DNA from: Candidatus Wolfebacteria bacterium GW2011_GWB1_47_1
Lineage (GTDB): Bacteria; Patescibacteriota; Minisyncoccia; UBA6257; UBA9933
DNA length: 64,000 bases
Assembly: GCA_001029635.1 (NCBI GenBank)
Contig: CP011209.1
Coordinates: 157,352 to 221,351, forward strand
Reading direction: 5' to 3'
Below the pieces are notes generated by a model, which saw only the letters and a list, made by a program, of their open reading frames with translations, was not told the DNA's origin and did not search any database. Every line of letters starts with the position of its first letter. The stretch's first letter is position 1. This document shows positions 1,671 to 49,146 of the stretch, one piece after another. The position numbers and the translations under genes were made by a program.

Positions 1671-2096
1671 ATGTCTGTCGCACAAGATAAAAAGGCAGTT
1701 CATCTGATCTGCGCAAAATGCGGAGACGCGATTACAGCAGGAGGAGCCGAATGTCGTGAGACAAGCAAAGAAGAGCTGTTCATACAGAGCAAATACCCGC
1801 ACTACGAAAGCGACAAGCGGCGCGACGAAGCAGTGCTGTTACTCCAAGAGGGCGGTATTGAGGCATGGCCACTCGGATGCGAAGCCCCGGGGACACCCAA
1901 GCCGCACTTCTTCGTGCTGTGGGAGATCCGCGAGGCCTGGAAGGCGAGGATTCGAAGTGGACTCGTCCCAGGGGTAATATGGCACTCCGCTGAATGTCTT
2001 TCACAGAAGCGTTTTTGCCTCTGCGACGCATGTGCGGTGACAACTATGCACAGGTGCCCACTGTGTGCCGCACAACTCACCCCGATCACGCAGTGA
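1671..2096 (+). CDS. Cys-rich hypothetical protein (141 aa), paralog-like to the 1361 gene
   Basis: RBS AAGGAGG 5 nt before the ATG at 1671. CAKC, CLCDAC and HRCPLCAAQLTP motifs; the C-terminal motif CP-x-C-x-AQL-x-P is shared with the upstream small protein. Confidence 0.5.
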   Translation: MSVAQDKKAVHLICAKCGDAITAGGAECRETSKEELFIQSKYPHYESDKRRDEAVLLLQEGGIEAWPLGCEAPGTPKPHFFVLWEIREAWKARIRSGLVPGVIWHSAECLSQKRFCLCDACAVTTMHRCPLCAAQLTPITQ

Positions 2097-2099
2097 TCC

Positions 2100-2128
2100 C
2101 AAGACCGGCTCCCGCCGGTCTTTTTTTA
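2100..2128 (+). terminator. Rho-independent terminator
   Basis: AAGACCGGCTCCCGCCGGTCTT hairpin followed by T7. Confidence 0.6.
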
Positions 2129-2196
2129 TTGACACAAAACGGATTCGGATATATAGAGTACATAGCACGACTCATTTTCTGAAAAGAGGAGCACAT

Positions 2197-2499
2197 ATGA
2201 GCATTCGAACCAAGGCGGTATTCTCAACGGGCCTACGAGCAAAGACGGCTATCTGGCCGGGAGACCTGGTGCGCTATGACGTGGGTGGCGTCTATATCTG
2301 GCGCCGAGGAGACACCACGCTAGAAAAACCGAACGGGGATAAATACCTCGTTAAAAATCCCGGCATACTGAGTGTCTCCCAGATGGGCGACATAGCCCAG
2401 GATACCGCGCATCTCCTCGCGCTTATATGCGAATTGCCCGTATTCACGGTGTTAGGCCCAGAGGATCGGACCGCATACCAGATCGGAGAACAGAAATAA
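2197..2499 (+). CDS. Hypothetical protein (100 aa)
   Basis: RBS AAAAGAGGAG upstream of the ATG at 2197; a terminator hairpin follows. Confidence 0.45.
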   Translation: MSIRTKAVFSTGLRAKTAIWPGDLVRYDVGGVYIWRRGDTTLEKPNGDKYLVKNPGILSVSQMGDIAQDTAHLLALICELPVFTVLGPEDRTAYQIGEQK

Positions 2500-2502
2500 C
2501 GG

Positions 2503-2531
2503 CAAAGCCGGCGTATGCGCCGGCCTTTTTA
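2503..2531. terminator. Bidirectional terminator between the 2197 gene (+) and trxB (-)
   Basis: AAAGCCGGCGTATGCGCCGGCCTTTTT hairpin with A/T runs on both sides. Confidence 0.55.
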
Positions 2532-2563
2532 TTTCTCACATCTCTTACCTCTATTCACTTACC

Positions 2564-3502
2564 TCACTTTTTCAGCCACATCTGTATGCTATTCGCAGCA
2601 ATAGCCCCCTCAGAAGCTGCCGTGATGATCTGCTTGAATTTATTCGAACCAGTAGTGATATCCCCAGCAGCCCACACACCCGCATACGAGGTTTTGCATT
2701 CCTTGTCGATTTCCACATAGCCATCAGCATCGATCGCGAGCTGTAGACCCTCAGTAAACCCGACCTGCGGGTCGGCTCCGATTTCCACAAACACTCCAGC
2801 AACCGCAAGCGTGGCGCTGCCCGCATGTTCTCTATCAAGTGCAACCTCCGTTACAGCAGCCTCCCCATTGATGGAGGTGATGTTCGTGTCGTAAACAACT
2901 TCTATATTGGAAGCCTCTTCAATGCGTTTCTTCCAGAACTCCTCGCAACGCAAAGCAGAGCCTCGATAGATCACATAAACCTTGCGCGCAATATCGGCAA
3001 GATACAGGGCTGAGATAGCTGCACTATCATTTCCCCCAATAACCGCAACATCCTTATCTTTAAAAAAGAACCCGTCGCACGTCGCACAGAACGAAACGCC
3101 TTGCCCTGAAAATTCCGCTTCACCGGGAATGTGCAAATGACGATGTTCGGTTCCGGTGGCGACCAGTACCGTCTTCGCGTGTACTATATTGCCATTGTCC
3201 AGCTCGAGCGCAAACACAAGACCTTCCTTTTCAATACCCTTTACTTTAGCAACCACAAAAGGCACTCCATAACTTTTTGCATGTGCAACAGCCTTTTGCG
3301 CAAAATCAAACCCTGTTATTTTTTCATCCCCAAGCCAATTGCCGATCTCATGTGACTTGGTTGCCGTCCCTCCGAACAAATCCCCGATCACAATACTCGT
3401 AAGCGCATACCGCGAAAGGTACACCGCCGCAGACAACCCCGCAGGACCTGCTCCGATGATCGCGGTATCGAACAATTGTATCTCTTGTTTCGTCGTTTCC
3501 AT
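2564..3502 (-). CDS. trxB: Thioredoxin-disulfide reductase
   Basis: FAD motif GAGPAGLSAAVY, redox-active CATC, NADPH motif VAVIGGNDSA, 312 aa. Ends in a TGA stop directly followed by the terminator. Confidence 0.9.
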   Translation of the reverse strand: METTKQEIQLFDTAIIGAGPAGLSAAVYLSRYALTSIVIGDLFGGTATKSHEIGNWLGDEKITGFDFAQKAVAHAKSYGVPFVVAKVKGIEKEGLVFALELDNGNIVHAKTVLVATGTEHRHLHIPGEAEFSGQGVSFCATCDGFFFKDKDVAVIGGNDSAAISALYLADIARKVYVIYRGSALRCEEFWKKRIEEASNIEVVYDTNITSINGEAAVTEVALDREHAGSATLAVAGVFVEIGADPQVGFTEGLQLAIDADGYVEIDKECKTSYAGVWAAGDITTGSNKFKQIITAASEGAIAANSIQMWLKK

Positions 3503-3539
3503 AGATAGATTGTATACTATTCTCTTTTTCCTGTCCCAA

Positions 3540-3881
3540 TTAGACGAGCTTGGTTAACGCTTCCCTCAACTCCTCCTCGATAACCTCCTTCGGACGGTAG
3601 CCTACAAAGCTTGCCACAACCTGCCCATTTTTAAACAACTGCATATTAGGAATACTTTGGATGTGATATTCCGCGGCGATCTCGTGCGAGGTCGGCTCAT
3701 CCACATTCAACTTTGCGACTTTCACCTGATCGCCCATATCATGCGCGATAGCATCGAGGATAGGACCCATCATAATGCACGGACCGCACCACGGCGCCCA
3801 AAAATCAACAAGTACCGGCAGTGTCGATTCCAACACCTCCTCCTTAAAATTTTCAAATGTTACTTCGATTGGTTTTTTCAT
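3540..3881 (-). CDS. trxA: Thioredoxin
   Basis: WAPWCGPC active site, 113 aa. Confidence 0.9.
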   Translation of the reverse strand: MKKPIEVTFENFKEEVLESTLPVLVDFWAPWCGPCIMMGPILDAIAHDMGDQVKVAKLNVDEPTSHEIAAEYHIQSIPNMQLFKNGQVVASFVGYRPKEVIEEELREALTKLV

Positions 3882-3893
3882 ACAAAAAAATGA

Positions 3894-4136
3894 TTAATTA
3901 AATTTGAACAACGCTTTGATATATGCTTCGCCTAGATGCTTGCAACGGTCATCATCTTTGAGTAGCTCAACCCCCAGCGAAGAGATTGATTGGCGGATAG
4001 CAGATATTTGAGTGATCACGTCAACGCAAGCGCGTTCTTCCTCGATCATCGAACGGATTCCGCGCAATTGTCCTTCGATGCGGGCAATACGATCAACGAC
4101 ATCCTTCTTTTTGGAGAGTTGTTCTTTATTTCCCAT
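3894..4136 (-). CDS. CsoR/RcnR/FrmR-family metal- or thiol-sensing transcriptional repressor (about 80 aa)
   Basis: Small all-helical protein with conserved Cys residues (RACVD, DRCKH). The start is set at MGNKEQ because the upstream in-frame ATG lies inside the -10 element; the mRNA is likely leaderless. Confidence 0.7.
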   Translation of the reverse strand: MGNKEQLSKKKDVVDRIARIEGQLRGIRSMIEEERACVDVITQISAIRQSISSLGVELLKDDDRCKHLGEAYIKALFKFN

Positions 4137-4147
4137 ATTGGTATAGT

Positions 4148-4168
4148 ACATACCCCCAGGGGGTATGT
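4148..4168. promoter_or_regulatory. Perfect 21-bp palindromic operator ACATACCCCC-A-GGGGGTATGT (CsoR-type) embedded in the promoter for the csoR-trxA-trxB operon (minus strand)
   Basis: The palindrome sits in the spacer between -35 TTGACA (reverse complement of 4166-4171) and -10 TACTAT (reverse complement of 4143-4148). The G/C-tract ATACCC...GGGTAT architecture is typical of CsoR-family operators. Confidence 0.6.
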
Positions 4169-4355
4169 CAAGACATGGGTATTTATTGACTAAGAGTCAT
4201 TATATCTATACAATAGTTTCACATTGCATTCTACATTCTTAGCCATCTGCATTTTTGTTGTCGGTTATAGATTGTAGGTTGTTAGTTGTATTCCGCATTC
4301 CTAATCCCTTTGCATTCCTGTTATCGGTCATAGGTTTTCGGTTATCAGTTATTTT

Positions 4356-4429
4356 GCACTCGTAGCTCAATTGGTTAGAGCACCCGCCTGTCACGCGGGA
4401 GGTTACCGGTTCGAGCCCGGCCGAGTGCG
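4356..4429 (+). tRNA. tRNA-Asp (GTC)
   Basis: Canonical cloverleaf; anticodon loop CTGTCAC; acceptor GCACTCG/CGAGTGC; discriminator G; CCA not encoded. Confidence 0.9.
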
Positions 4430-4446
4430 CATTGAATGTTACTAGC

Positions 4447-4477
4447 AAAAAAGACGAGTAAAAAGCTCGTCTTTTTT
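4447..4477 (+). terminator. Rho-independent terminator after tRNA-Asp
   Basis: AAAAAAGACGAG-TAAAAAG-CTCGTCTTTTTT. Confidence 0.65.
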
Positions 4478-4494
4478 GCTTCCCCTCTTTAATC

Positions 4495-4668
4495 TGCGAG
4501 CATGTAAAAATAGGGATCAGCTGGACGAAGAAAATCTCCTCAGAAACTAAGGGTCTAGGACCCGTCAGCCAGACGGGCGAGCCTTAGTTTTGCAAGAGAT
4601 TTTAGAGTCCGGCCCCTATTTTTATTCCGCGAGCGACTTTTTTGGTACTTTTTTCTAGAAAAAAGTAC
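4495..4668. repeat. Copy A of the roughly 143-bp TIR/hairpin element (4495-4637) plus the adjacent GTAC-N14-GTAC palindrome (4645-4668)
   Basis: Terminal inverted repeats tGCGAGCatGTAAAAATAGGG and CCCCTATTTTTAttccGCGAGCgac; internal long stem with apex CCCGTC-AGCCA-GACGGG. Three more copies lie at 12796, 21805 and 33837. Confidence 0.7.
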
Positions 4669-4713
4669 AGGGGAAACTTGAGGGACCCTCTTCATTTCCT
4701 ATATACTATTTGC

Positions 4714-5214
4714 ATGGAGCTACGAACCAATGAGGGTCATCGCATCACCTCGACCGCCATCATTCACAAGAACGGTAAGTTTTTAATTACCAAGCGGAGC
4801 CCACACAAAAAGGCATTCCCAAACAAATGGACTGTTCCGGGTGGCGGATTGGAAACCGAGGATTACACCAGCACCCCGAAGACGACTGCCGACCACTGGT
4901 ATTATGCGATTGAAAATTCCCTCCGTCGAGAAATTCTTGAAGAAGTAAATCTAGAGGTAGGCAAAGTGGACTACCTGCTCGATATGGCATTTATCCGACC
5001 CGATGGATGGCCTGTTATCGTATTAAGTTACTACTGCCCTTATAAATCAGGGTTGGTAAAGCTCGACGAAGACGCCGTAGATCATGCATGGGTCACCTAC
5101 GAAGAGGCACGAAATTACGATCTCATTGATGGGATTCTCGCCGAAATAGAAATGGTGGACAAAATTCTCAAAGGAGAAGACCCGAGGACCGTATCGTTTA
5201 ATCATATTGCATGA
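4714..5214 (+). CDS. NUDIX hydrolase
   Basis: Nudix box GGGLETED...LRREILEEVNLEV. The start is chosen at MELRTNEG because the ORF-track 5' extension overlaps repeat copy A. Confidence 0.75.
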   Translation: MELRTNEGHRITSTAIIHKNGKFLITKRSPHKKAFPNKWTVPGGGLETEDYTSTPKTTADHWYYAIENSLRREILEEVNLEVGKVDYLLDMAFIRPDGWPVIVLSYYCPYKSGLVKLDEDAVDHAWVTYEEARNYDLIDGILAEIEMVDKILKGEDPRTVSFNHIA

Positions 5215-5216
5215 CA

Positions 5217-5247
5217 AAAAAGCCGTGCGCCTAAGGCGCACGGCTTT
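5217..5247. terminator. Bidirectional terminator between the NUDIX gene (+) and the MazG gene (-)
   Basis: AAAGCCGTGCGCCTTAGGCGCACGGCTTT hairpin. Confidence 0.6.
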
Positions 5248-5250
5248 GTC

Positions 5251-5799
5251 TTAGGTCTCGATAAGAAATCGCTCCCTATCTCGGACACTGACCTTATGCA
5301 CGCTTGCATTGAATGCATCGTCCATCGTGCATTCAAGTCGTTCGCATAGCGATTCAAGTGCTCGAATCGCATTCCCGAGCTTTATCTCAACGGTCAGAAT
5401 GGAAAGAAGTTGAGACGTGTTATTCGCTCCATACCGAACATCCACCTCTTCGATAAGCTGTCCGGCGCAGGCGTGCAATCTGGCATGCAATGAAAGGGGT
5501 GAGTGATTACGGGACGCATGCGTCTGTAGTGTGCCAATCCAATAAGCGCGATCGAGATTATACCCGTTCGCGTTGGCAAAGCAAACCAGTGTATAGAGGA
5601 CGTCTCCGATTTCTTCAACGACATCACCTTCCGGCTCATTCCACCGCTTCCGCTTGTCCCCGTGCAGATGATTGATCTCACGGGCAACTTCGCCTATCTC
5701 CTCGGATAGACGAGCCATGATCGAAAGCGGCGTCCAGTAACCCCACTGGAGAGACTGAAACAGTTCCTCAATCTTGCGTTGATATGATTGGTATCTCAT
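5251..5799 (-). CDS. MazG-family nucleoside triphosphate pyrophosphohydrolase
   Basis: MazG EE/EExxD-like helices: LSEEIGEVAREI, EEIGDVLYTLV. Confidence 0.65.
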   Translation of the reverse strand: MRYQSYQRKIEELFQSLQWGYWTPLSIMARLSEEIGEVAREINHLHGDKRKRWNEPEGDVVEEIGDVLYTLVCFANANGYNLDRAYWIGTLQTHASRNHSPLSLHARLHACAGQLIEEVDVRYGANNTSQLLSILTVEIKLGNAIRALESLCERLECTMDDAFNASVHKVSVRDRERFLIET

Positions 5800-12007: not shown

Positions 12008-12249
12008 ACGATACCTCCCTATATTATTGTGAAATGGACTGCTAATATAGTAGTACCACTGAAGGGTATATTTGTCAAAAAAACAGCCCGAAGGCTGCTT
12101 GGTTTAGGCTGCGCATCCGGGAGGGCCCGGTCATTAGAGGGGACCTTGTCGCCCTCCATCCCTATGTTTCCTCCTGCCGCGGACAGGAAAAACGGAAACG
12201 GTCTAGGCGCCCCCGGATGCACATTTGTTGTGTTTCCAAAAAGATCTGG

Positions 12250-12333
12250 TGTACCCCGACAGGGCTTGAACCTGCACGAGACTGCTCTCACTCGATGGTA
12301 ATCGAGCGCGTCTACCAATTCCGCCACGGGGAC
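12250..12333 (-). tRNA. tRNA-like gene, type II (Leu-type D-arm, long variable arm); anticodon arm non-canonical, so possible pseudogene or variant
   Basis: Reverse complement ...TGGCGGAATTGGTAGACGCG...GGTTCAAGCCCTG..ACCA. The anticodon region CTCGA-TTACCA-TCGAG gives a 6-nt loop, and the acceptor stem has mismatches. Confidence 0.45.
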
Positions 12334-12345
12334 AGAAAATCTTTT

Positions 12346-12426
12346 TGGTCGGAGTGAGTGGGTTCGAACCACCGACCTTCGCTGGGATCATCCATACGAT
12401 GCGCTACCGGGCTGCGCTACACTCCG
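12346..12426 (-). tRNA. tRNA-like gene (Pro-type D-arm, GGTGGTTCGAACCCACT T-arm, CCA encoded); no canonical anticodon stem-loop could be drawn
   Basis: Reverse complement CGGAGTGTAGCGCAGCCCGGTAGCGCA-TCGTATGGATGATCCCAGCGA-AGGTCGGTGGTTCGAACCCACTCACTCCGACCA. The region between the D- and T-arms is 4 nt too long and fits no 5-bp/7-nt anticodon arm. Confidence 0.4.
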
Positions 12427-12463
12427 ACACAATCGTTAAATCTAAAAAGTTTTGTTCCGAAAC

Positions 12464-12540
12464 TGGCGCGCGAGGCAGGACTCGAACCCGCGACCTCAAT
12501 CCGTGAAGGATTGCGCTCTACTCGACTGAGCTACTCGCAC
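12464..12540 (-). tRNA. tRNA with a canonical cloverleaf whose anticodon loop CTTCACG places TCA (UCA) at positions 34-36; discriminator G, CCA encoded
   Basis: Reverse complement GTGCGAG-TA-GCTC-AGTCGAGTA-GAGC-G-CAATC-CTTCACG-GATTG-AGGTC-GCGGG-TTCGAGT-CCTGC-CTCGCGC-G-CCA. Position 37 would be C, which is atypical. Confidence 0.5.
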
Positions 12541-39624: not shown

Positions 39625-42600
39625 TTATTGCCCCGCACCTCGCAAGAACTTGAAGGTGTCTTCGAAATTCTTAAAGATGACGTCGAAAATCGACTCACCC
39701 TTTTGTGGCGTGATGACTGTACGAGGACCGAATGTCGTCTTGTTGCCTGCCGAGTCGGTTGATTCGATCTTCATCTGATAGATCGTACCTGGCTTGAGGC
39801 TCGAAAGAATGATCGCATGATTATTGGTATATGTATCGAGCTGTTCTTCCTTGTTGGCAAATCCGTCCTTTACCTGTCCTGCTCCTTCCTGATAATAGAT
39901 GACGGAATTGGACAATTCATCCGTTACCCAAGTAATAACGGTCTGTACTCGGTCGTTTCGACCGGGGACAAGCGCTCCGTCTACTTTAAAGTTGGAGATC
40001 TTTGGAGCGGTGATATCGCGTACCGTCGAAACGGTCAGGGGAGCTCCGCCTTCAATCAAGTTGCCCTTTTCGTTGTATCCGAATACCGTTACTTCATATG
40101 CAGTTGCCGGGACAAGCTTATCGATGAGAATCTCGTGCTCCTTAACAAGCGTATTTTCTATCTTGCGCTGAATTTCTCCGGTTCTTACATTTTTGTATTC
40201 CACAATGGTTGATGCGGTATCTTCCGTGCTCCAAACAACATTGAAGGAAGTATTCTTTATGTTTATTACGCGTGCCGAGATTCTTGAGGCCTTTGTTGTG
40301 AAGGTTGTGTCTTGGCTACTACCCACAACTTGAGGTAGGGAGAACGATCTCACCATAAAGTGATATTTGGTATTTGGTTCCAATCCTACCAGGGTAAGCT
40401 GATGATCCGTTTCCTTTGATTCTGTGCGGGATATTTCTCCTACATACGGGTTTGGCCGCGTTGCGTCAAACTCGCTTTCTTTTGCGTAGAGAATGACTGC
40501 ATACGATTTGATGTTCGTCTTCCAGCTTATATCAGCCGTATTTTCGGTTATGGCCGTAATGCGGGGTTCTTCCACAAACGGCGGCAATACTCCCGGCAAA
40601 ATAGATTCGATGGTTTGCTCAACCTCTTCCTCATACTGTTTTACATCCTCCACAGTTCTGAGGCCAGGGCTTGCCTGGGTGAGATATTTAGTTTTGAAGG
40701 TCTGGCTTTCGGAGATCATCCGATTTGCCGACTTGTCGATCGCCTCGGCTTCAAACTTGTATTCCGTACCCATTTTCAACCCCGTTATTGTGAATTTATG
40801 ATGAGTCGTCCAATCGCGATGGCTGATGGTATCGGTAAAGGCATCTTTCCCATAATGCAAGAATCCAAGTGAAGGTTCGCTTGCATCAAACTCGATTATG
40901 GCTCCAAACGCAGTTGTGGTCGCTATTGTTATGTTCGAGATCGTCGGCGCGGTAGTGTCTTTTACCTCTGGCGGTGTAGACTGGCTCGCTCCTCCACCGA
41001 TAGTTACCACGCGCACTTCACCCTCCTGGGTTGTGGCAAACGTTGTAGACGTTGATACGGCCGCATTTCCCGATCCATCTCGGGATTCCACTGAAAACGC
41101 ATACGTCGTATTTGGAGTCAATGCGGTTCCCGCGTCCAATCCAATATTGACTGAGTGATACACGGAGAGGGTGGCGTCTGCCGGCGTATAGGTATTCATC
41201 GTAGAAGAACTTGCCCCATACCGCACTTGTGACGTTGCGGGCTCGCTTGTCTTCCAAAATACACTCACGCTGTTTGGTGTGCGGATTGGCGTAGAAACCT
41301 GAGAGATCGCCGGAGGGAAGGTATCGTTGGTCGTGCGGAAGGTGCGGTATGTACCACCGTTATCATCCATTGTGGTATTGCCCTGTACATCGGTCGATTG
41401 TACCGAGTAATAGTAGGTAGTCCCTGCGGCGAGGCCGGTGACGGGAACGGTATGGATAAAGTCTTCGGTTGTTGATGCATCTCCCACGGGGAGTGACGTT
41501 CCCCATACTTCCTTATATCCATTAAAGGACTGACTTACCGCATAGCGCACTAAGGTATCAGCAGTCTTATTGGTATGCCAGCTGACGAGCGCATTGGCAT
41601 CGGTAATGCCTTCGCCCGTGATCTGGGTGATATAGGGACCCGCAGTTGTATGGAAGGTATAACCCGCTCCGCTATTGTCATCGATTCCTTCATTAAGATT
41701 GGAATCCTTTGATGCAACCTTGAACACATAATCACTATCCGGGACAAGGGCCGAGAGTGTTACGCTGTGTGTTTGTCCGGCTCCCTGTTCTGTTGCGGTC
41801 ATGCCATAGGCGGCATCGCCTACTTTATTGTAGGACACGATTCCATCCGCGTCTTCATCGGTCTCCCACGTAATAGTCGCCCAGGTTGAGTGGACTACCG
41901 GTGCGGAAGGAGCGACGGTAAAGAGTGGTGCGTTAGAGTCGGAGCTACCGCGGCCGTCCGGGACATCGGTGAGTACTGGCGAGTACGCAGAAGTATCGTC
42001 GTCCGTATCGACGACAGCGATGCGATATGTGTACTCGGTCGATGATGCAACTTCGTTGTCGAGATAATAGGCCTGGAGCAATGTGGTCTGCGTGGCAAGT
42101 AAATCAAAGGTTATGCCATCAGCTGCCCGTTCCACGAGATAGTGCTTGAAGGTAGAGTTGGCAACATTGCCATGTACCGGCCATGAAATAAATTCCTTAT
42201 AGAGTTGGAGATCCGCCTTTGAGATATCAGTGAAGTCGATTCTGCTTGGCGCGCTCGGCGCAACGATAGATTGCTGACTTATGTTGCCCGAGCCATCGCG
42301 CACCTGTACGTAAATGGTCGGATAGCTCGAAGTCGCCACAGTCCATGTAAGCGATGATGCAGCTGTTGCGTTGGCATCAATCCACTGACCATCGGTCGCA
42401 TTGGTTGCCGACGATGACGAGGCGGTGAAGTTGGCAAATTCAGAGAAACGATATTGGAACGCCCCCTCGTCAGAGAATGCGAAGGTTAGTGCATTGGTGC
42501 GTGCGTCAAAGCGTGCCGTGGTGATCGTCGGGTCGGTAGTATCAATGACGAACGCGGAAGTTGTCGCGGTTGCGGTGCTGAAGATTGCCTCTTGGTCGTT

Positions 42601-45600
42601 GATCGTGATCCTGATCATCGCGGTGTTGGAGTAGACGCCATCAATATCTGCCTTGGCATCCCAATAGGCGCCGAGTACTGTAGCGGTCGCGCCGATCGGC
42701 TGTAAGCCGTTGGTGCCGCTTTCGAGCACGAGAGATGGAGAGGATGTCGCAATATCGGTCCAGGTGGAGCCATTGTCGGTTGAATACGCGAAGGACGGCT
42801 CGATGCGTCCCGGGATAGTTACGCCTTCCGCGGTATCCTCATCAAGAATGGTGTAGTTGACATGAACCTGTCCGTAGCGGGCATCGGTGGAGTCCGATAT
42901 GACACTTGCTGACTGCGATGAAAACGCCGGTCGGATATTGTACCCCGCACTGTTTGTATCGGTTGCTTCGTCTATATTGCCAAAGACATCGCGGATACGC
43001 ACGGTGATTGTTTCGCTGCGCGAGTCCACATGCCAAGGGAAGGTTGTTGTCGCAAGGGTAACACCATCGGATGCGAAGGCATCCCCCCAACTGTCTTCGG
43101 TTGCGACTCCTCCAACATAACCGTACCAGGTGGTACCGCCATTGCGGGAGAACTGCGCCTGAATCTGCTCATTGATCGGATGACCCGATAGTGAGACGAG
43201 GCGTAAGGTGACGTCTTTGGAGTCGGTGACTACAATTTCACTGGAATCGTTGATCAGTAAGGAACCGCCTGATAAGGTCGGTGGGGTGATGTCGAGAATA
43301 AACGAAGTCGATGTCGCGATACCGAGGTTATTGAGTTGCTCGGCATCATTTGCCGTTACGCGGATTCGAACATCGTCTTGTGAGACGTTATTAAGCTCCG
43401 TTTTTGCGTCCCAGTGTGCGGTGAACGATGCTGGGGTTGCCGATACCGTAGTGGACGCAATGTCCCCCGTTACGAGACTGGCCGGAATCCAAGTCGATTC
43501 CCCATCAAGTGAATAGGCAAAGGATGGTGTCGCTGCTATGTTATCAAGATCGGCGATCGTGTATTCGATGGTAACATCGGCATTGTTTGGATCAGGTGTC
43601 TGTGCCGCAGTAACCGTTACGATCGGTGCGCTGTTATATGACACGGTATTGGAATCAGTTGCGGGGCCATGGCCAAGAGTATCCATGATACGCACAGAGA
43701 TAGTTTCGGTCTTTTCGCCTAAGACAATATCCCACGCAACGGTTGACGTTGATGAGAACGACGTGCCATAGGCATCCTGTGCACCGATGGTGCCGTCGGC
43801 ATTTGCCGCATACCAAGTTACGCCGTCATGGGAAAGCTGTGCAATAATCAGCTCGCCTACCGGGGATCCGGTGACATCGGCCAACGTCACGGTGACGTTG
43901 GCGGAGGCTGCTTGTACGGTAGCGGAAGATCCGTTGATTACCACTGATGATTCGGTGAGTGCCGGCGCGGAAGTATCAAGATATAATGACGCATCAATCG
44001 ATGCGGAGAGGTTTCCCGCGATATCAATGTAGCGAACAGAGACGGTTTTGGTTGCGTCTCCCGCCGTAAGGGCATATGCCTTCGTGGTTGCGTATGATTC
44101 CGCGGAGGTCCAGGTGGTGCCATCTCCGGAGAATTGCATCTGAGTCACCGAATTATTGTCGGTTGCAGATAGATGCAAGACGACGTCGGTCGAGGTAGCA
44201 TAGGCGGATCCATCATTGATAACAAGGGTTCCGGTTGGTTCCTGGGTATCAAGCGTAATCGTATCGCTCGCGGTTTCGGAAATAAGGCCGGATCCATCGA
44301 TGACCTGCGCGGAAACACCTTGTATTCCATCGACACTCGGAATGGTCACGGATGATGTTGTCGCAAACGCAGACCAAGTAGACCAGGTAGCTCCTTCATC
44401 GGTTGAGGTCCGCATCTGGCTAGCCCCTGACCCTGCATCGGTTGCGGTGACCGTGAGGGTAACGGTTATGCTATTGGCAAACGCATTGTTGTCGTTAATA
44501 ACTAGTGAGATGACAGGCGCAATGGTGTCGATAAGAATATTGGCATTAGCCGATACGGACATATTATTACGTGCGTCACGGAACTGTGAGTAGACAGTCT
44601 TTAATCCCTCTCCCGTCGCAAGGGTATATGCTTTGGATGTCGCATATGATTCCCATGCAGACCAGTCGGTGTCGTTGTCGGAAAAGCGCATTGAGGCAAC
44701 TGATGATCCGGTATCAGTCGCAGAGAGATTTAATGTAACTGCCGTGGATGATGCATAGCTTGCGCCGCTATTAATGGCAATGGTTCCTGATGGAGCAATG
44801 GTATCGATCGCGAAATTTGCACTCGTTAATGATGCGGTATTACTGAATGTATCTGCATCGTCGGCGGTAAACCGAATGGCAAACGCGGAGCCACTCACGG
44901 CGCCTGCATACTGCGTCGCATCCCAGTAGGCGGAATATGAGGTATCAGTACCTGTCCCCACGGCAATCGGGGAACCAAATGCAACGCCAGCCGCATCGGT
45001 GAGTTGATTGATAGGAAGCGTTGCCCATAGCGAACCATCATACCATTCAAATGACGGTATCACCTGGTTTGTTGTGGAGTCGGTATCTCGGAGCGCGAAG
45101 TCGATCTTTATCTTGCCGAAGTTTGCGTCGGTAGAAGAAGCAAGTTGTGCGGCAGTAATAGACGCAATGGTTGGCGGTACGTTGTATGTATAGGTAGGGG
45201 TTACATCGTCAACCCTCGGCGTATATATTCCGTCAGAGGTGAGATCTACCTTGTATTGGAAATATTGATCTCCCGATCCATCCTGCATGGACGCGGGAAT
45301 TGAGGAAGAACCGCAGGTTACGGTGTCTGTAATCTTTCCACAGGCATTGGTGAAGGCTGTCCATATGCCAAGCGTATCGGTAGATGCGCCGGTACGGAGC
45401 GACACGGTAACGGAGGTATTAGCCGGAAGAGTCGTATCTTCTTTCCAGCTCAATCCGGTCATTATATTGGTCGCACTCGTGGAATTGTATAGGGAGGAAA
45501 GAAGCGAGCTTGTGGAAGCGTATCGTGCATATGTAATGGAAACGTCATCCAGTGACGGTGACTGCGAAGTATTTGCCGTCGAGAGCGTTGCCTTGTACTG

Positions 45601-48600
45601 AATGTATCGATGGCCCACCACTGCACCCAACGTGCTCAAGGAGATGCCGGTGTTAGTGGAAGCAGTGCCAAAGGATGCCGCATCAGAAAGATCAGCGGCA
45701 TTGCTGGTGCGCACCTGCATCGAAACAGTCTGTCCGCCCGAATTTGTCCACGAGAGATTGCCCCAGTTTGCCACTGCACTGCCCGCGTCCAAGACGCCGG
45801 AGGTGAAGGAGCCGGATGGATGGTAGCTGCCCGGGAAGGTAACAGACCCGGTCACGCTGTCGAGTGAGGGGGTAACTGCAGTATTTCCCCCGTTTGCCAA
45901 GGTAGCCTGATACCAGAGGTAGCGGCTATTAGATGGAGCGCAAGTCGTGTTAAGGGTGATTGACCCATTGGCGGAAACAGTCCCGGAATCGCAGGTGCCC
46001 GAAGCAAAGCTTGGCGCGCTCGCCGAGGTAGTTCCTTTAACCTTGATGCTGAAAGTTGTTCCCGAAGGATACTGTCCTGCGTACGCAAACGAGTTCCAGG
46101 TGTATGCGGCTGCGGAACCGGCGTCAAAGTAGGAAGTGTAGGTCCCGGAAGTGGCATACGATACGAGTATTCCAGGTACAAAAACAGTGTCTACAGTAGC
46201 AGTTGGCTGGATTGGAGCAGTAACACTGCCGGTCGTCGCCCCGTTGCCGACTTGGCCGGCGCCGTCATCTCCCCAGCACCATAAGCTTCCGTCGATGTAG
46301 GAGCAGGTGTGATTGTACCCCGTAGCAACCTGCGTCACGCCACTTGCAACGACCGTGGCAGGGGAATGTATGGCACCGGTAGTAGCCCCGTTGCCGATTT
46401 GGCCTAGACTGTCATCTCCCCAGCACTGCAGACTCCCGTCCGTCTTAACGGCGCAGGTGTGATTTTTCCCCGTAGCAACCTTCGTCACGCCACTTGCAAC
46501 GACCGTGGCAGGGGAAGTTATATTACCGGTGGTTCCCCCGTTACCGACTTGTCCCCAGCCATCATATCCCCAGCACTGCAGACTCCCTGATACGACGGCG
46601 CAGGTGTGATTGTCCCCCGCAGCAACCTGCGTCACACCGCTTGCGATAGCCGTGACAGGGGCAATCATGTCGTAGTTGGTCGCCGGCCCGTTGCCGACCT
46701 GGCCGGCGCCGTCACTCCCCCAACACTGCAGACTCCCGTCAGTCTTGACGGCACAGGTGTGTTTGGTCCCCGCGGCAACCTGTGCCACTCCACTTGCGAT
46801 GACCGTGACAGGGGAAGTTATGGCGCCGGTGGTCCCTCCGTTGCCAAGCTGCCCGTAGTTGTCATACCCCCAACACTGCAGACTCCCCGATACGACGGCG
46901 CAGGTGTGTTCGTACCCCGCAGCAACCTGCGTCACGCCACTTGCAATGACCTGGAACGGAGAAACGACATTGCCAGTCGTCGCCCCGTTGCCGACTTGGC
47001 CGTAGCTGTCATATCCCCAACATTGCAGACTCCCCGATACGACGGCGCAGGTGTGTGCGTACCCCGTAGCAACCTGCGTCACGCCACTCGCGATGACCTG
47101 GAACGGAGAAACGACATTGCCAGTCGTCGCCCCGTTGCCGATTTGGCCGTAGGTGTCGGATCCCCAGCACCACAGACTTCCGTCCGAGCTCTTAATGGCG
47201 CAGGTGTGAGTGCCTCCCCCGGCAACCTGGGATCCTAAAAGGGGTCCAGGCCCTTGGATGGATGGCTGGACTGGAGAAGTAATGTTACCGGTGGTTGCTC
47301 CGTTGCCGACTTGGCCTAGACTGTCATCCCCCCAACACCACAAACTCCCGTCCGTCTTGAAGGCGCAGGTGTAGTAGGTTCCCCCGGCAACCTGACTCAC
47401 TCCGGAAATTCCCGCGACTTGCACCGGCGAGAGCTGATCTTGCTCTAGGGCGTTGCCTAATTGGCCATATAGAATACTAGAATACGCATCGCTATAGCCA
47501 TTAGATCCCCAACACCACAAACTCCCGTCTGTCTTGACGGCGCAGGTGTGGTAATATCCCGTAGTTACCTGACTCACTCCGCTGGCAATGGTCTGGACTG
47601 GAGAGGTGACACTACCACTAGTTGTTCCGTTGCCGATCTGTCCGTTGCTGTTATATCCCCAGCACCACAGACTCCCGTCTGTCTTGACGGCGCAGGTGTG
47701 TAAGAAGCCCGCAGTTACCTGGCTCACTCCGCTGGCAATAATAGGGGCTGGAAGCATGACATAACCAGTGGTTGGTCCGTTACCAATCTGCCCGGCAGAG
47801 TCATTTCCCCAGCACCACAGACTCCCGTCTGTCTTGACGGCGCAGGTGTGGTAGACTCCCGTAGTTACCTGACTCACTCCGCTGGCAATGATCTGGTTCG
47901 GAGACGTGGTAAGGCCCCCGATCGATCCGATGCCGACCTGTCCATCGCTGTTATATCCCCAACACCACAAACTCCCGTCTGTCTTGACGGCGCAGGTTTG
48001 ACTCTTTCCTGCGGAAACCTGGACCACTCCGGAAATTCCTGCGACTTGCACTGGAGAGGGCTGATCTGACGGTATAGTATTGCCGAGTTGGCCAGTTAGA
48101 TCATAGCCATATCCTGACTCATAACCGTTAATTCCCCAGCACCACAGACTCCCGTCCGTCTTGACGGCGCAGGTATGACTGCTCCCCGCAGAAACCTGCG
48201 TCACTCCGCTGGCAATGATCTGGACTGGAGATGTAATAGCTCCTCCGATCACTCCGTTGCCAATCTGTCCATGATCGTTATATCCCCAGCACCACAGACT
48301 CCCGTCCGTCTTAACGGCGCAGGTGTGGTAATCCCCTACGGAAATTTGTGAAGACGTATCACGTAACGTTACGCTCGAATTAGAGCCGCTTACCCCGTTT
48401 AGGTTTGTGTCCGCATTTGCACCATATGCCCACCCTCCTTGCTGAGAGGGAGTTGCGACGGTGGATGTGTCATCGGTCGTTGTAATGCTTCCGGTCACGG
48501 ATTGCGTTGTGAGTGTAATCGAAGTTCCTGTCCCGCTTCCGGTAAGCGTGGTCGTTGCGGTGGTATACGCGCCATACGCAAACCCGCTTGCGGTTGTAGT

Positions 48601-48864
48601 TGCATCGCTTGTCTGGGTTATGGTCGTCGTCGCAAGCGGAAGGGTTAGCGCAGTCGAGGTCGCCAAGGTTGCCGAATTAAACTGTGTCCATCCCGTGCGG
48701 TTTGCCGATTCTGTTGCGATAGTGGCGGTTGCCCCGCCCGTCCACGCGTTTTGTGAAAAGCTCGCCGTAGTAGCCGCCTGCACAAAGTCTCCTTGTCCGA
48801 CTACAACGGATAGCAACGTAACCGCAACGGTTGCGACGGTAAGGGCTGATTTGAATATCTTCAT
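39625..48864 (-). CDS. Giant secreted surface protein (about 3080 aa from the MKIFKSALTV start): signal peptide, Ser/Thr-rich region, about 15 RCC1-like beta-propeller repeats, then multiple FN3/Ig-like domains
   Basis: Signal peptide MKIFKSALTVATVAVTLLSVVVGQGDFVQA. The motif HTCAVKTDGSLWCWGYNxxGQxGNG repeats about 15 times (RCC1/ATS1-type blades); FN3-like segments (TWATITWETDEDADGIVSYN, KHYLVERAADG...YTYRIAVVD). The internal track ORFs on both strands are artefacts. Confidence 0.85.
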   Translation of the reverse strand: MKIFKSALTVATVAVTLLSVVVGQGDFVQAATTASFSQNAWTGGATATIATESANRTGWTQFNSATLATSTALTLPLATTTITQTSDATTTASGFAYGAYTTATTTLTGSGTGTSITLTTQSVTGSITTTDDTSTVATPSQQGGWAYGANADTNLNGVSGSNSSVTLRDTSSQISVGDYHTCAVKTDGSLWCWGYNDHGQIGNGVIGGAITSPVQIIASGVTQVSAGSSHTCAVKTDGSLWCWGINGYESGYGYDLTGQLGNTIPSDQPSPVQVAGISGVVQVSAGKSQTCAVKTDGSLWCWGYNSDGQVGIGSIGGLTTSPNQIIASGVSQVTTGVYHTCAVKTDGSLWCWGNDSAGQIGNGPTTGYVMLPAPIIASGVSQVTAGFLHTCAVKTDGSLWCWGYNSNGQIGNGTTSGSVTSPVQTIASGVSQVTTGYYHTCAVKTDGSLWCWGSNGYSDAYSSILYGQLGNALEQDQLSPVQVAGISGVSQVAGGTYYTCAFKTDGSLWCWGDDSLGQVGNGATTGNITSPVQPSIQGPGPLLGSQVAGGGTHTCAIKSSDGSLWCWGSDTYGQIGNGATTGNVVSPFQVIASGVTQVATGYAHTCAVVSGSLQCWGYDSYGQVGNGATTGNVVSPFQVIASGVTQVAAGYEHTCAVVSGSLQCWGYDNYGQLGNGGTTGAITSPVTVIASGVAQVAAGTKHTCAVKTDGSLQCWGSDGAGQVGNGPATNYDMIAPVTAIASGVTQVAAGDNHTCAVVSGSLQCWGYDGWGQVGNGGTTGNITSPATVVASGVTKVATGKNHTCAVKTDGSLQCWGDDSLGQIGNGATTGAIHSPATVVASGVTQVATGYNHTCSYIDGSLWCWGDDGAGQVGNGATTGSVTAPIQPTATVDTVFVPGILVSYATSGTYTSYFDAGSAAAYTWNSFAYAGQYPSGTTFSIKVKGTTSASAPSFASGTCDSGTVSANGSITLNTTCAPSNSRYLWYQATLANGGNTAVTPSLDSVTGSVTFPGSYHPSGSFTSGVLDAGSAVANWGNLSWTNSGGQTVSMQVRTSNAADLSDAASFGTASTNTGISLSTLGAVVGHRYIQYKATLSTANTSQSPSLDDVSITYARYASTSSLLSSLYNSTSATNIMTGLSWKEDTTLPANTSVTVSLRTGASTDTLGIWTAFTNACGKITDTVTCGSSSIPASMQDGSGDQYFQYKVDLTSDGIYTPRVDDVTPTYTYNVPPTIASITAAQLASSTDANFGKIKIDFALRDTDSTTNQVIPSFEWYDGSLWATLPINQLTDAAGVAFGSPIAVGTGTDTSYSAYWDATQYAGAVSGSAFAIRFTADDADTFSNTASLTSANFAIDTIAPSGTIAINSGASYASSTAVTLNLSATDTGSSVASMRFSDNDTDWSAWESYATSKAYTLATGEGLKTVYSQFRDARNNMSVSANANILIDTIAPVISLVINDNNAFANSITVTLTVTATDAGSGASQMRTSTDEGATWSTWSAFATTSSVTIPSVDGIQGVSAQVIDGSGLISETASDTITLDTQEPTGTLVINDGSAYATSTDVVLHLSATDNNSVTQMQFSGDGTTWTSAESYATTKAYALTAGDATKTVSVRYIDIAGNLSASIDASLYLDTSAPALTESSVVINGSSATVQAASANVTVTLADVTGSPVGELIIAQLSHDGVTWYAANADGTIGAQDAYGTSFSSTSTVAWDIVLGEKTETISVRIMDTLGHGPATDSNTVSYNSAPIVTVTAAQTPDPNNADVTIEYTIADLDNIAATPSFAYSLDGESTWIPASLVTGDIASTTVSATPASFTAHWDAKTELNNVSQDDVRIRVTANDAEQLNNLGIATSTSFILDITPPTLSGGSLLINDSSEIVVTDSKDVTLRLVSLSGHPINEQIQAQFSRNGGTTWYGYVGGVATEDSWGDAFASDGVTLATTTFPWHVDSRSETITVRIRDVFGNIDEATDTNSAGYNIRPAFSSQSASVISDSTDARYGQVHVNYTILDEDTAEGVTIPGRIEPSFAYSTDNGSTWTDIATSSPSLVLESGTNGLQPIGATATVLGAYWDAKADIDGVYSNTAMIRITINDQEAIFSTATATTSAFVIDTTDPTITTARFDARTNALTFAFSDEGAFQYRFSEFANFTASSSSATNATDGQWIDANATAASSLTWTVATSSYPTIYVQVRDGSGNISQQSIVAPSAPSRIDFTDISKADLQLYKEFISWPVHGNVANSTFKHYLVERAADGITFDLLATQTTLLQAYYLDNEVASSTEYTYRIAVVDTDDDTSAYSPVLTDVPDGRGSSDSNAPLFTVAPSAPVVHSTWATITWETDEDADGIVSYNKVGDAAYGMTATEQGAGQTHSVTLSALVPDSDYVFKVASKDSNLNEGIDDNSGAGYTFHTTAGPYITQITGEGITDANALVSWHTNKTADTLVRYAVSQSFNGYKEVWGTSLPVGDASTTEDFIHTVPVTGLAAGTTYYYSVQSTDVQGNTTMDDNGGTYRTFRTTNDTFPPAISQVSTPIRTPNSVSVFWKTSEPATSQVRYGASSSTMNTYTPADATLSVYHSVNIGLDAGTALTPNTTYAFSVESRDGSGNAAVSTSTTFATTQEGEVRVVTIGGGASQSTPPEVKDTTAPTISNITIATTTAFGAIIEFDASEPSLGFLHYGKDAFTDTISHRDWTTHHKFTITGLKMGTEYKFEAEAIDKSANRMISESQTFKTKYLTQASPGLRTVEDVKQYEEEVEQTIESILPGVLPPFVEEPRITAITENTADISWKTNIKSYAVILYAKESEFDATRPNPYVGEISRTESKETDHQLTLVGLEPNTKYHFMVRSFSLPQVVGSSQDTTFTTKASRISARVINIKNTSFNVVWSTEDTASTIVEYKNVRTGEIQRKIENTLVKEHEILIDKLVPATAYEVTVFGYNEKGNLIEGGAPLTVSTVRDITAPKISNFKVDGALVPGRNDRVQTVITWVTDELSNSVIYYQEGAGQVKDGFANKEEQLDTYTNNHAIILSSLKPGTIYQMKIESTDSAGNKTTFGPRTVITPQKGESIFDVIFKNFEDTFKFLRGAGQ

Positions 48865-49075
48865 TCTATTGTAGCGTTTAGAGAATTGCATTGTATGTAT
48901 AAGTGTGTGTTTGTTTGAATAGGTTCTTCGTGTGGTATCACTTCGTAGTGGGGCTGGCTGTATATAAATCCCTTGGGGTGACTCCGGGGGTCGACTTCCA
49001 CCGGGGTCCCGATATCGTTTTTTAAAATGCAAAAATTCACTTTTTTGAAAAGTGTTCCGCAGTTCACGTATACGC

Positions 49076-49146
49076 AATGACGCACGCAAGAGTGTCATGT
49101 GTGTTCGTAGAGAATTCGTTTTTCATTTCCACGCAAATAGAAATGA
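49076..49146. promoter_or_regulatory. Conserved upstream region of giant gene 1 (AATGACGCACGCAAGAGTGTCAT ... TTCCACGCAAATAGAAATGA), repeated in inverted orientation upstream of giant gene 2 (58831-58892)
   Basis: 23-bp and 20-bp blocks are identical at both loci in the same orientation relative to each gene, 200-250 bp upstream of the start codons. Confidence 0.55.

Follow-up and report, generated by a model that had tools for sequence, protein, structure and literature searches.

This report concerns a small regulatory gene and its neighbors in the genome of Candidatus Wolfebacteria bacterium GW2011_GWB1_47_1. The sequence that we analyzed is a stretch of 64,000 nucleotides (nt) of contig CP011209.1 (positions 157,352 to 221,351), which is called the window here and from whose first nucleotide all window coordinates are counted. 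The minus strand of the window carries a gene for a CsoR/RcnR-family repressor (3894 to 4136; Pfam family PF02583), which encodes 80 amino acids (aa) beginning with MGNKEQ. The gene that follows on the same strand, trxA (3540 to 3881), encodes a thioredoxin (Trx) with a WCGPC active site; its product scored 113.5 bits with TIGR01068 (cut-off, 96.8) and matched the Pfam Thioredoxin family. The third gene (2564 to 3502, minus strand) encodes a trxB-like flavoprotein of the low-relative-molecular-mass (low-Mr) thioredoxin reductase (TrxR) family, which matched Pfam Pyr_redox_2. The transcription unit ends at an intrinsic-terminator-like hairpin (2504 to 2527, minus strand), which is bidirectional and also closes a convergent open reading frame (ORF) at 2065 to 2499.

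A first-pass annotation of the window had described these genes as a csoR-trxA-trxB operon. In the case of trxA, this description held up. The repressor stop codon and the trxA start codon are separated by only 12 nt, the same gene order was found in relatives, and the short gap indicated that the two genes are co-transcribed. Furthermore, a promoter scan of the intergenic 12 nt and of the csoR 3' end returned no separate site for trxA. In the case of trxB, a promoter-like site (3509 to 3537, minus strand) consisting of GGGACA, 17 nt, and TACAAT (9 of 12 matches) was found 6 nt before the ATG at 3502, and it contained no operator. The arrangement of TAnAAT, 6 nt, and ATG, again with no operator, was kept before trxB in six relatives (including L001, L002, L005, L155, and L156). 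It is probable that trxB has its own promoter in addition to read-through, that in this clade the repressor controls TrxR expression only in part, and that the word operon was only partly right for the third gene.

The gap between csoR and trxA was enlarged in several relatives (L002, 3217 to 3353; L005, 3217 to 3373; L153, 3244 to 3437; L156, 3343 to 3430; and L082, 2723 to 2783). These inserts were strongly folding (-37 to -67 kcal/mol) and had termini of the form GTCATTCC(C/G)G...C(C/G)GGAATGAC. They look like small palindromic repeat insertions, and none was present in the window.

Operator and promoter of the repressor gene

The putative operator is a perfect 21-bp palindrome, ACATACCCCC-N-GGGGGTATGT (10+1+10), at positions 4148 to 4168, with a TAC-N9-GTA core and a C5/G5 tract. 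A repeat finder returned arms of 10 nt that were 100% complementary around a 1-nt center, and direct reading of positions 4200 to 3880 gave the minus-strand sequence (4168 to 4148) as ACATACCCCC-T-GGGGGTATGT. The palindrome had been proposed to be of the CsoR operator type, and comparison with published work bore this out. Specifically, the Streptomyces CsoR consensus is ATATACCCCTNAGGGGTATAT, which includes a 5'-TAC-X9-GTA-3' dyad that is essential for binding (PMC3902906), and the window operator has the same form; it is essentially the TAC-N9-GTA, G-tract operator of Cu(I)-CsoR in S. lividans. The exact core ATACCC-N5-GGGTAT occurred once in the 64-kb window, compared to 0 of 100 shuffled sequences. 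A scan of the window for further operators yielded a single extra match, a site with two mismatches at 12053; two matches at the 2-mismatch stringency are at chance level, as 61 of 100 shuffles had at least two.

To assess conservation, we used a comparative set of 80 genome loci, metagenome loci, and four contigs of close relatives. A TAC-N9-GTA operator was found upstream of the csoR orthologue, or of the gene heading its operon, in 80/80 genome loci. When the 260 nt preceding each of the 80 orthologues were scanned with a relaxed TAC-N9-GTA pattern, there were 79 matches; by chance, about 18 would be expected in the whole 450 kb. In the four loci with no match in those 260 nt, a perfect operator was located farther upstream, before another operon-heading gene. 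This gene encoded a YgaP-like transmembrane (TM) protein (DUF2892) in three cases (L012, 905 to 1102; L034, 2719 to 2922; and L073, 2024 to 2914) and a DUF302 protein in the fourth (L079, 2531 to 2968). In about 70 of the 80 genome loci, each locus had a single copy of the strict 12-base core, in every case upstream of the regulator or its operon, and this core was also found 5' of canonical csoR genes (those with the x-C-H-C ligand signature) in outgroup loci. Because the operator matches the published consensus and its core precedes canonical x-C-H-C csoR genes, DNA recognition by the repressor appeared to be typical of the CsoR family.

We also considered whether the palindrome could be an RNA hairpin or a terminator. 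This idea was rejected because the palindrome is upstream of the predicted minus-strand start and no real plus-strand gene ends there. The operator arms were conserved and the center varied freely, which is the pattern of a protein site. In a separate observation, locus L059 contained two operator-like sites (ATACCCCCATGGGGTAC and ATACCATAAGGGGGTAT) that were 26 nt apart (1348 to 1390) and about 1.65 kb upstream of the regulator gene. This pair precedes other plus-strand ORFs, including one for a shikimate-dehydrogenase-like protein, and may mark a second regulated promoter.

As the first-pass annotation had proposed, the operator fills the 17-bp spacer of a minus-strand promoter. The last three bases of the -35 hexamer TTGACA (4166 to 4171) are the first three bases of the operator, and the first base of the -10 hexamer TACTAT (4143 to 4148), 17 nt after the -35 hexamer, is the operator's last. 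In a promoter scan of positions 2000 to 5000, this arrangement was the top promoter-like site, with 10 of 12 matches. The repressor ATG (4134 to 4136) coincides with the predicted transcription start, since the A of the ATG is the seventh base after the -10 hexamer. The six bases in between are ACCAAT in the window, and no GGAGG-like sequence was found before the ATG.

The same layout, TTGAC-ATACCCC...GGGGTAT-(G/A)TAnnAT-6 nt-ATG, was shared by ten distinct close relatives (65 to 81% identity). TTGAC directly 5' of ATACCCC was invariant (10/10), and a TAnnAT -10 element was present at the same position in nine of the ten; the remaining relative (L153) had the weaker TAAGAG. The 6-nt spacing was fixed, the bases within it differed (ACCAAT, AGTGCT, ACTCGT, GTCGCC, and others), and no Shine-Dalgarno (SD) sequence was found there. 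Because the -10-to-ATG geometry was conserved and the sequence within it was not, these data supported a leaderless csoR mRNA, and we infer that transcription starts at the ATG at 4136, in line with the earlier proposal that the start codon leaves no room for an SD sequence. The ORF list and some database entries place the repressor start at an upstream ATG at 4151. This start was rejected because it is located inside the operator and the -10 element and is missing in relatives; the conserved start is 4136.

A second promoter layout was found in the Moranbacteria-type loci. In these loci, the operator (AATATACCCC-N5-GGGTATATT) overlaps both a -10 element (TAATAT) and the predicted start of transcription, and the ATG is 22 to 29 nt past the operator center, which indicated that the mRNAs have short leaders. 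In every case, the operator overlaps the core promoter: within the Wolfebacteria-like clade it occupies the spacer, and in the Moranbacteria-like clade it overlaps the -10 element and start. In either layout, a protein bound to the operator would be positioned to keep RNA polymerase out.

The leaderless geometry was not confined to csoR. A TAnnnT element followed by 5 to 7 nt and an ATG, with no SD sequence, also precedes the starts at 3502 (minus), 4714 (plus), 8295 (minus), 13191 (plus), 49254 (plus), and 57120 (minus), among others, and SD-like sequences were rare in the window. This geometry therefore looks ordinary for this genome, where it may even be the norm, and is no special trait of csoR. 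On the other side of the csoR promoter, a divergent, back-to-back promoter on the plus strand (TTGACT at 4186 to 4191, 17 nt, and TACAAT at 4209 to 4214) points towards a tRNA-Asp gene at 4356 to 4430, with about 135 nt between the predicted divergent start and the tRNA. A perfect 15-bp hairpin (4444 to 4480) that looks like a bidirectional terminator follows the tRNA-Asp gene.

Family and ligand residues of the repressor

The assignment of the repressor to the CsoR family was confirmed by Pfam, by sequence matches in PDB, and by fold matches. The Pfam PF02583 score was 71.3 bits (cut-off, 22.8; E value, 9e-20), with an aligned part that covers residues 10 to 61 only, and the best PDB sequence matches were CsoR, InrS, CstR, and FrmR. 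An AlphaFold2 (AF2) monomer model with a predicted local distance difference test (pLDDT) score of 87.8 had helices at residues 2 to 32, 37 to 61, and 70 to 76, with Cys37 at the start of helix 2. When this model was compared to PDB via Foldseek, the top 19 matches were all CsoR-family proteins (CsoR, InrS, CstR, and FrmR; probability, 0.97 to 1.00). A DNA-binding RxxR motif (R16 and R19) and Gln43 were invariant in the repressor family, and the RxxR arginines and the Gln are needed in S. lividans CsoR (PMC3902906). In its PF02583 fold, its RxxR and Gln DNA contacts, and its predicted autoregulation, the repressor resembles the Cu(I)-CsoR proteins of M. tuberculosis, B. subtilis, and S. lividans.

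The homologues of the repressor were all from Patescibacteria (the candidate phyla radiation, or CPR), specifically Wolfebacteria, Moranbacteria, and Parcubacteria. They were 76 to 100 aa long and carried generic names only. The NCBIfam scores of the window protein were far below the cut-offs for RicR (58 versus 175), RcnR (35.2 versus 138), and FrmR (32.7 versus 133). It is a clear member of the CsoR/RcnR superfamily, and by these scores and the ligand positions described below it falls in none of the characterized classes.

The ligand positions X, Y, and Z, which are Cys, His, and Cys in canonical x-C-H-C proteins, were located in two ways. HMMER aligned window residues 9 to 64 with S. lividans CsoR without gaps, and residues 11 to 61 with Geobacillus CsoR, which aligned Cys37 with the X Cys and Asp62 with the ligand His. 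A MAFFT alignment was made with 30 canonical x-C-H-C proteins from metagenome loci (LLDDHARHC) and five reference sequences, which were consistent with published residue numbers. The MAFFT alignment agreed with HMMER: in the window protein, Asp62 occupies Y, Cys65 falls on Z-1, and a Lys is found at Z. The first-pass annotation had pointed to Cys residues in RACVD and DRCKH contexts and had read them as a C...C-H pattern. Both residues (Cys37 and Cys65) are present, but the His in that pattern, His67, is not conserved (Asn, Ser, Arg, or Lys in relatives), so the motif was wrong in this detail.

Across the family, the X Cys was present in 153/153 proteins, Y was Asp in 152/153, and every one of the 153 proteins contained exactly two Cys residues. 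The second Cys was at +28 from the X Cys in 150 proteins and at +27 in three, whereas the canonical Y and Z positions are at +25 and +29. The Z residue was Lys, Arg, Ile, or Gln, and 120 of the 153 proteins had no His in the core. In the family alignment, there was no Pro2 and no His3, and residue 2 varied (Gly, Glu, Val, Thr, and others); the Tyr before the X Cys was missing when the family was aligned with canonical proteins. In the AF2 model, helix 2 ends at residue 61 and Cys65 is in the loop before the short helix 3 (70 to 76). Based on the MAFFT alignment, canonical members extend about 20 residues farther past the second Cys. In a search of 1.84 billion proteins, there were 3938 family matches, and the short architecture was found in about 15 to 20 representatives at 50% clustering, some of which carry Glu, His, Lys, or Asn at Y or Cys at Z-2.

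These residues were used to compare the clade with the characterized classes. Membership in the Cu(I)-CsoR class (x-C-H-C) was rejected because Y is Asp instead of His, the second Cys is at +28 or +27 (typically one residue off Z), and no copA or copZ motifs were found nearby; the lack of a Tyr before the X Cys and the RicR score are further differences. Membership in the RcnR/InrS class (H-C-H-H/C) was rejected because there is no conserved N-terminal His, most members have no core His, and the RcnR score is low. Similarly, the variable residue 2, the Asp at Y, and the FrmR score led us to reject membership in the FrmR class (P-C-H-x).

The CsoR/RcnR family consists mainly of metal sensors, and the repressor could still be a sensor for a metal or metalloid: two thiolates might bind Cu(I), or Cys37, Cys65' of the partner subunit, and Asp62 might bind a thiophilic ion (for example, As(III), Cd(II), Hg(II), or Zn(II)), with thioredoxin repairing thiol damage caused by the metal. 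The invariant Asp at Y could serve as a ligand, the operator is equal to that of Cu-CsoR and also precedes canonical x-C-H-C csoR genes, and an SBF/ACR3-type transporter gene is located between the regulator gene and trxA in one locus (L046, 3044 to 4111). However, the His ligand is missing in all members, the second-shell Tyr is absent, and a second Cys that varies between +27 and +28 in a loop is a poor fit to a fixed coordination geometry. The gene neighborhoods also argued against metal sensing. In 93 clade loci (507 kb), we found no P-type ATPase (DKTGT) motif, no heavy-metal-associated (HMA) domain motif (GMxCxxC), and no rhodanese active-site motif, whereas the HMA motif was found in 34/64 and DKTGT in 16/64 of the canonical CsoR loci used for comparison. 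Together with the NCBIfam scores, these results made a metal sensor very unlikely.

Genes downstream of the operator in Patescibacteria

To describe the regulon, genes directly downstream of the regulator on the same strand were clustered and representatives were annotated. A TrxR-like flavoprotein was encoded in 75 loci, a glutamate dehydrogenase (GDH) in 29, TrxA in 22, and a short-chain dehydrogenase/reductase (SDR) family oxidoreductase in 11. The regulon had been called unusual for a CsoR-family repressor, and this partnership with thioredoxin system genes was indeed conserved in the clade; it occurred with none of the copper and rhodanese motifs described above. Two kinds of TrxR-like protein were found. 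Members of the first are orthologues of the window gene product (50 to 78% identity), and those of the second are nearer to AhpF, specifically its C-terminal half (about 33% identity). In L053, L068, L021, and L042, the regulator and TrxR-like genes are separated by only 5 to 12 nt; therefore, co-transcription in these loci is hardly in doubt.

The third gene in the window had been annotated as a thioredoxin reductase gene, and this was right with respect to family. The CATC redox center is present, the closest relatives in PDB are ordinary low-Mr TrxRs (Sulfolobus TrxB-3, 9e-60) and not the clostridial FFTRs (flavin thioredoxin reductases that depend on ferredoxin), and membership in the low-Mr TrxR fold family is clear from these matches. 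On the other hand, when the product was aligned with E. coli TrxB, GGNDSA and YRGSALR replaced the GGGNTA (GxGxxA) and HRRDGFR (HRRxxxR) of the E. coli protein, and the product's TIGR01292 score was below the cut-off (296.8 versus 343.45). GxGxxA and HRRxxxR are the NAD(P)H motif criteria for NADPH-dependent thioredoxin reductases (NTRs) (PMC10880999), and by these criteria the predicted protein is a non-NTR.

A second alternative, which is a more specific form of the thiol switch proposed below with a defined inducer, is that the repressor senses persulfides or other reactive sulfur species. CstR, as described for Staphylococcus aureus, Enterococcus faecalis, and Streptococcus pneumoniae, is a CsoR-family persulfide sensor with a dithiol switch, and CstR neighborhoods are described as marked by genes for rhodanese, sulfide:quinone oxidoreductase (SQR), persulfide dioxygenase, and CoA-persulfide reductase (PMC8643695). 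The window protein is like CstR in its fold and superfamily, its two conserved Cys residues with no His ligand (in the manner of the x-C-x-C sensors, but with the second Cys one residue before Z, or two in three proteins), and its operator style. By analogy, it would also be a repressor of a thiol or sulfur stress operon, and intersubunit Cys-Cys chemistry is likely. If it works as CstR does, sulfane sulfur would bridge Cys37 and Cys65' as a di-, tri-, or tetrasulfide, and Trx and TrxR would act as a depersulfidase; thioredoxin-like proteins of S. aureus are reported to reduce protein persulfides (PMC6196236).

The YgaP-like or DUF302 genes that head the operon in 4 of the 80 loci are a weak hint to sulfur. 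YgaP of E. coli is a membrane rhodanese. Together with the SBF/ACR3 transporter gene, the YgaP-like and DUF302 genes may add members with a sulfur or metalloid flavor to the regulon. In contrast, no rhodanese motif was detected in the 93 clade loci, and there was no gene for SQR, persulfide dioxygenase, CoA-persulfide reductase, or formaldehyde dehydrogenase among the immediate downstream gene families. The clade differs from CstR in its regulon (Trx, TrxR-like, GDH, and SDR), its patescibacterial hosts, its invariant Asp at Y, and its helix 3, which is about 20 residues shorter. Its second Cys is at +28 or +27, not +29, and lies in the loop after a shorter helix 2; in most members, the Cys spacing is thus 28 instead of 29. 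In addition, the repressor sequence is no nearer to CstR than to Cu-CsoR or InrS. We consider a persulfide sensor unlikely, but a more serious candidate than a metal sensor.

The third alternative is a FrmR-type formaldehyde or aldehyde sensor, or an autoregulator that responds to another metabolite (a nucleotide or the flavin redox state), with the Cys residues having a structural role. The protein belongs to the FrmR/RcnR superfamily, JGI labels many clade members as FrmR family, and the co-operonic GDH and SDR genes could hint at a metabolic or NAD(P)H-linked signal. However, FrmR needs Pro2 and Cys35, and residue 2 is Gly in the window protein and variable across the family. The downstream gene families did not include formaldehyde dehydrogenase, and exactly two Cys residues in all family members would be hard to explain as structural residues of a helical bundle. 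This alternative seems at least as improbable as metal sensing.

A NUDIX hydrolase gene and a MazG-like gene (4714 to 5799) are located directly upstream of the tRNA-Asp/csoR region, and this arrangement was kept in L153, L156, and L157. These nucleotide "house-cleaning" families may fit an oxidative-damage theme in the neighborhood.

Proposed thiol switch and its context

The most likely mechanism, to which we give a probability of about 0.6, is a thiol switch of two Cys residues that relieves repression of the thioredoxin system, with a general oxidant or sulfane sulfur as the inducer. It is favored because the family has strictly two conserved Cys residues, no metal ligands, redox partner genes, and a precedent in CstR. 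In this model, the reduced repressor would occupy the 21-bp palindrome in the -35/-10 spacer of its own promoter and block RNA polymerase. The repressed transcript would be the leaderless csoR-trxA mRNA that reads on into trxB, which would also be transcribed from its own promoter. The predicted sensor pairs Cys37, at the start of helix 2, with Cys65' of the partner subunit, which lies in the loop that follows helix 2. The repressor would be released when these cysteines are oxidatively modified, whether by a disulfide between subunits, by a per- or polysulfide bridge, or through alkylation by an electrophile, and expression of thioredoxin and the TrxR-like enzyme would then rise. Re-reduction of the Cys pair, plausibly by the induced thioredoxin system itself, would bring repression back and create a self-limiting thiol-redox homeostat. 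The co-operonic GDH and SDR enzymes might supply reduced nicotinamide cofactor. The established parts of this picture are the family membership, the operator with its position, and the conserved partnership of genes; repression by the protein, sensing by the Cys pair, the inducer, and feedback through Trx are predictions.

Several observations weigh against this model. The second Cys is out of the canonical register and in a predicted loop, and its nearness to Cys37' is assumed, as the structure is a monomer model. The invariant residues Asp62 and Lys60 could indicate a ligand other than an oxidant. Control of TrxR may be partial, given that trxB in the window has its own conserved promoter with no operator. 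Finally, the TrxR-like enzymes have no NADPH motifs, and their thioredoxin reductase activity is predicted from sequence.

The thiol switch has parallels outside the classes discussed above. RexT of Nostoc is described as an ArsR-SmtB family H2O2 sensor that controls the thioredoxin gene trxA2 (PMC8960804). As in that description, a member of a metal-sensor family would have been re-used as a Cys redox sensor that derepresses a thioredoxin gene. RexT has a winged-helix fold and an unrelated operator, so the likeness is one of working logic and not of membership. TTHA1953 of Thermus thermophilus, a CsoR-family protein, is described as a regulator of the sulfur oxidation pathway (PMC10318464). 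It resembles the window repressor in having a regulon other than metal efflux, but its sox targets and its lineage differ; this comparison is one by description only.

A sequence similarity network (SSN) survey of PF02583 describes Cu, Ni/Co, formaldehyde, and persulfide classes as well as uncharacterized clusters, and the word thioredoxin had 0 occurrences in the survey's full text as searched. Furthermore, no link between the CsoR/RcnR family or CPR regulators and trxAB was found in the literature searched, whose coverage was incomplete, so a prior description is possible. Neither the repressor family nor the operator is novel, in contrast to the ligand signature, the regulon, and the lineage.

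We more tentatively propose that the clade could represent a fifth CsoR/RcnR effector class: a direct thiol-disulfide (oxidant or electrophile) sensor that is reset by the thioredoxin system it controls. In this proposal, which we would not yet put at even odds, many Patescibacteria with reduced genomes might rely on the repressor as their chief, or perhaps sole, thiol-redox transcription factor, and GDH and SDR might power the non-canonical TrxR-like enzymes. Patescibacteria are a huge and almost wholly uncultured radiation with very few transcription factors, and almost no CPR transcription factor has a predicted signal, site, and regulon. All three can be proposed for the repressor described here. 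Its operator is defined, its promoter architecture is defined and takes two forms, and its conserved regulon comprises Trx, TrxR-like, GDH, and SDR genes; together, these features provide a testable model of thiol/redox-stress sensing. For work on the CsoR/RcnR family, the clade adds a subfamily signature (Cys at X, Asp at Y, Cys at Z-1, and a short helix 3) and a regulon that is devoted neither to metal efflux nor to formaldehyde or sulfide detoxification. It is also relevant to the evolution of effector specificity when the DNA-binding scaffold is fixed and the operator stays the same.

Elsewhere in the window, a cluster of unusual tRNA-like genes was found on the minus strand (12251 to 12540). 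The cluster includes a tRNA with the anticodon UCA, labelled SeC, at 12464 to 12540 (an ARAGORN call; 51.7 bits with the Rfam tRNA model), an 81-nt "tRNA-Ile" that was called by ARAGORN and not found by Rfam, and an undetermined tRNA at 12251 to 12333 (29.4 bits). The first of these might be a tRNA that reads UGA. However, the trxB gene terminates with a UGA exactly where its relatives end, so UGA seems to act as a stop codon here. A single ORF of 3157 aa at 39625 to 49098 on the minus strand is much larger than any other in the window.

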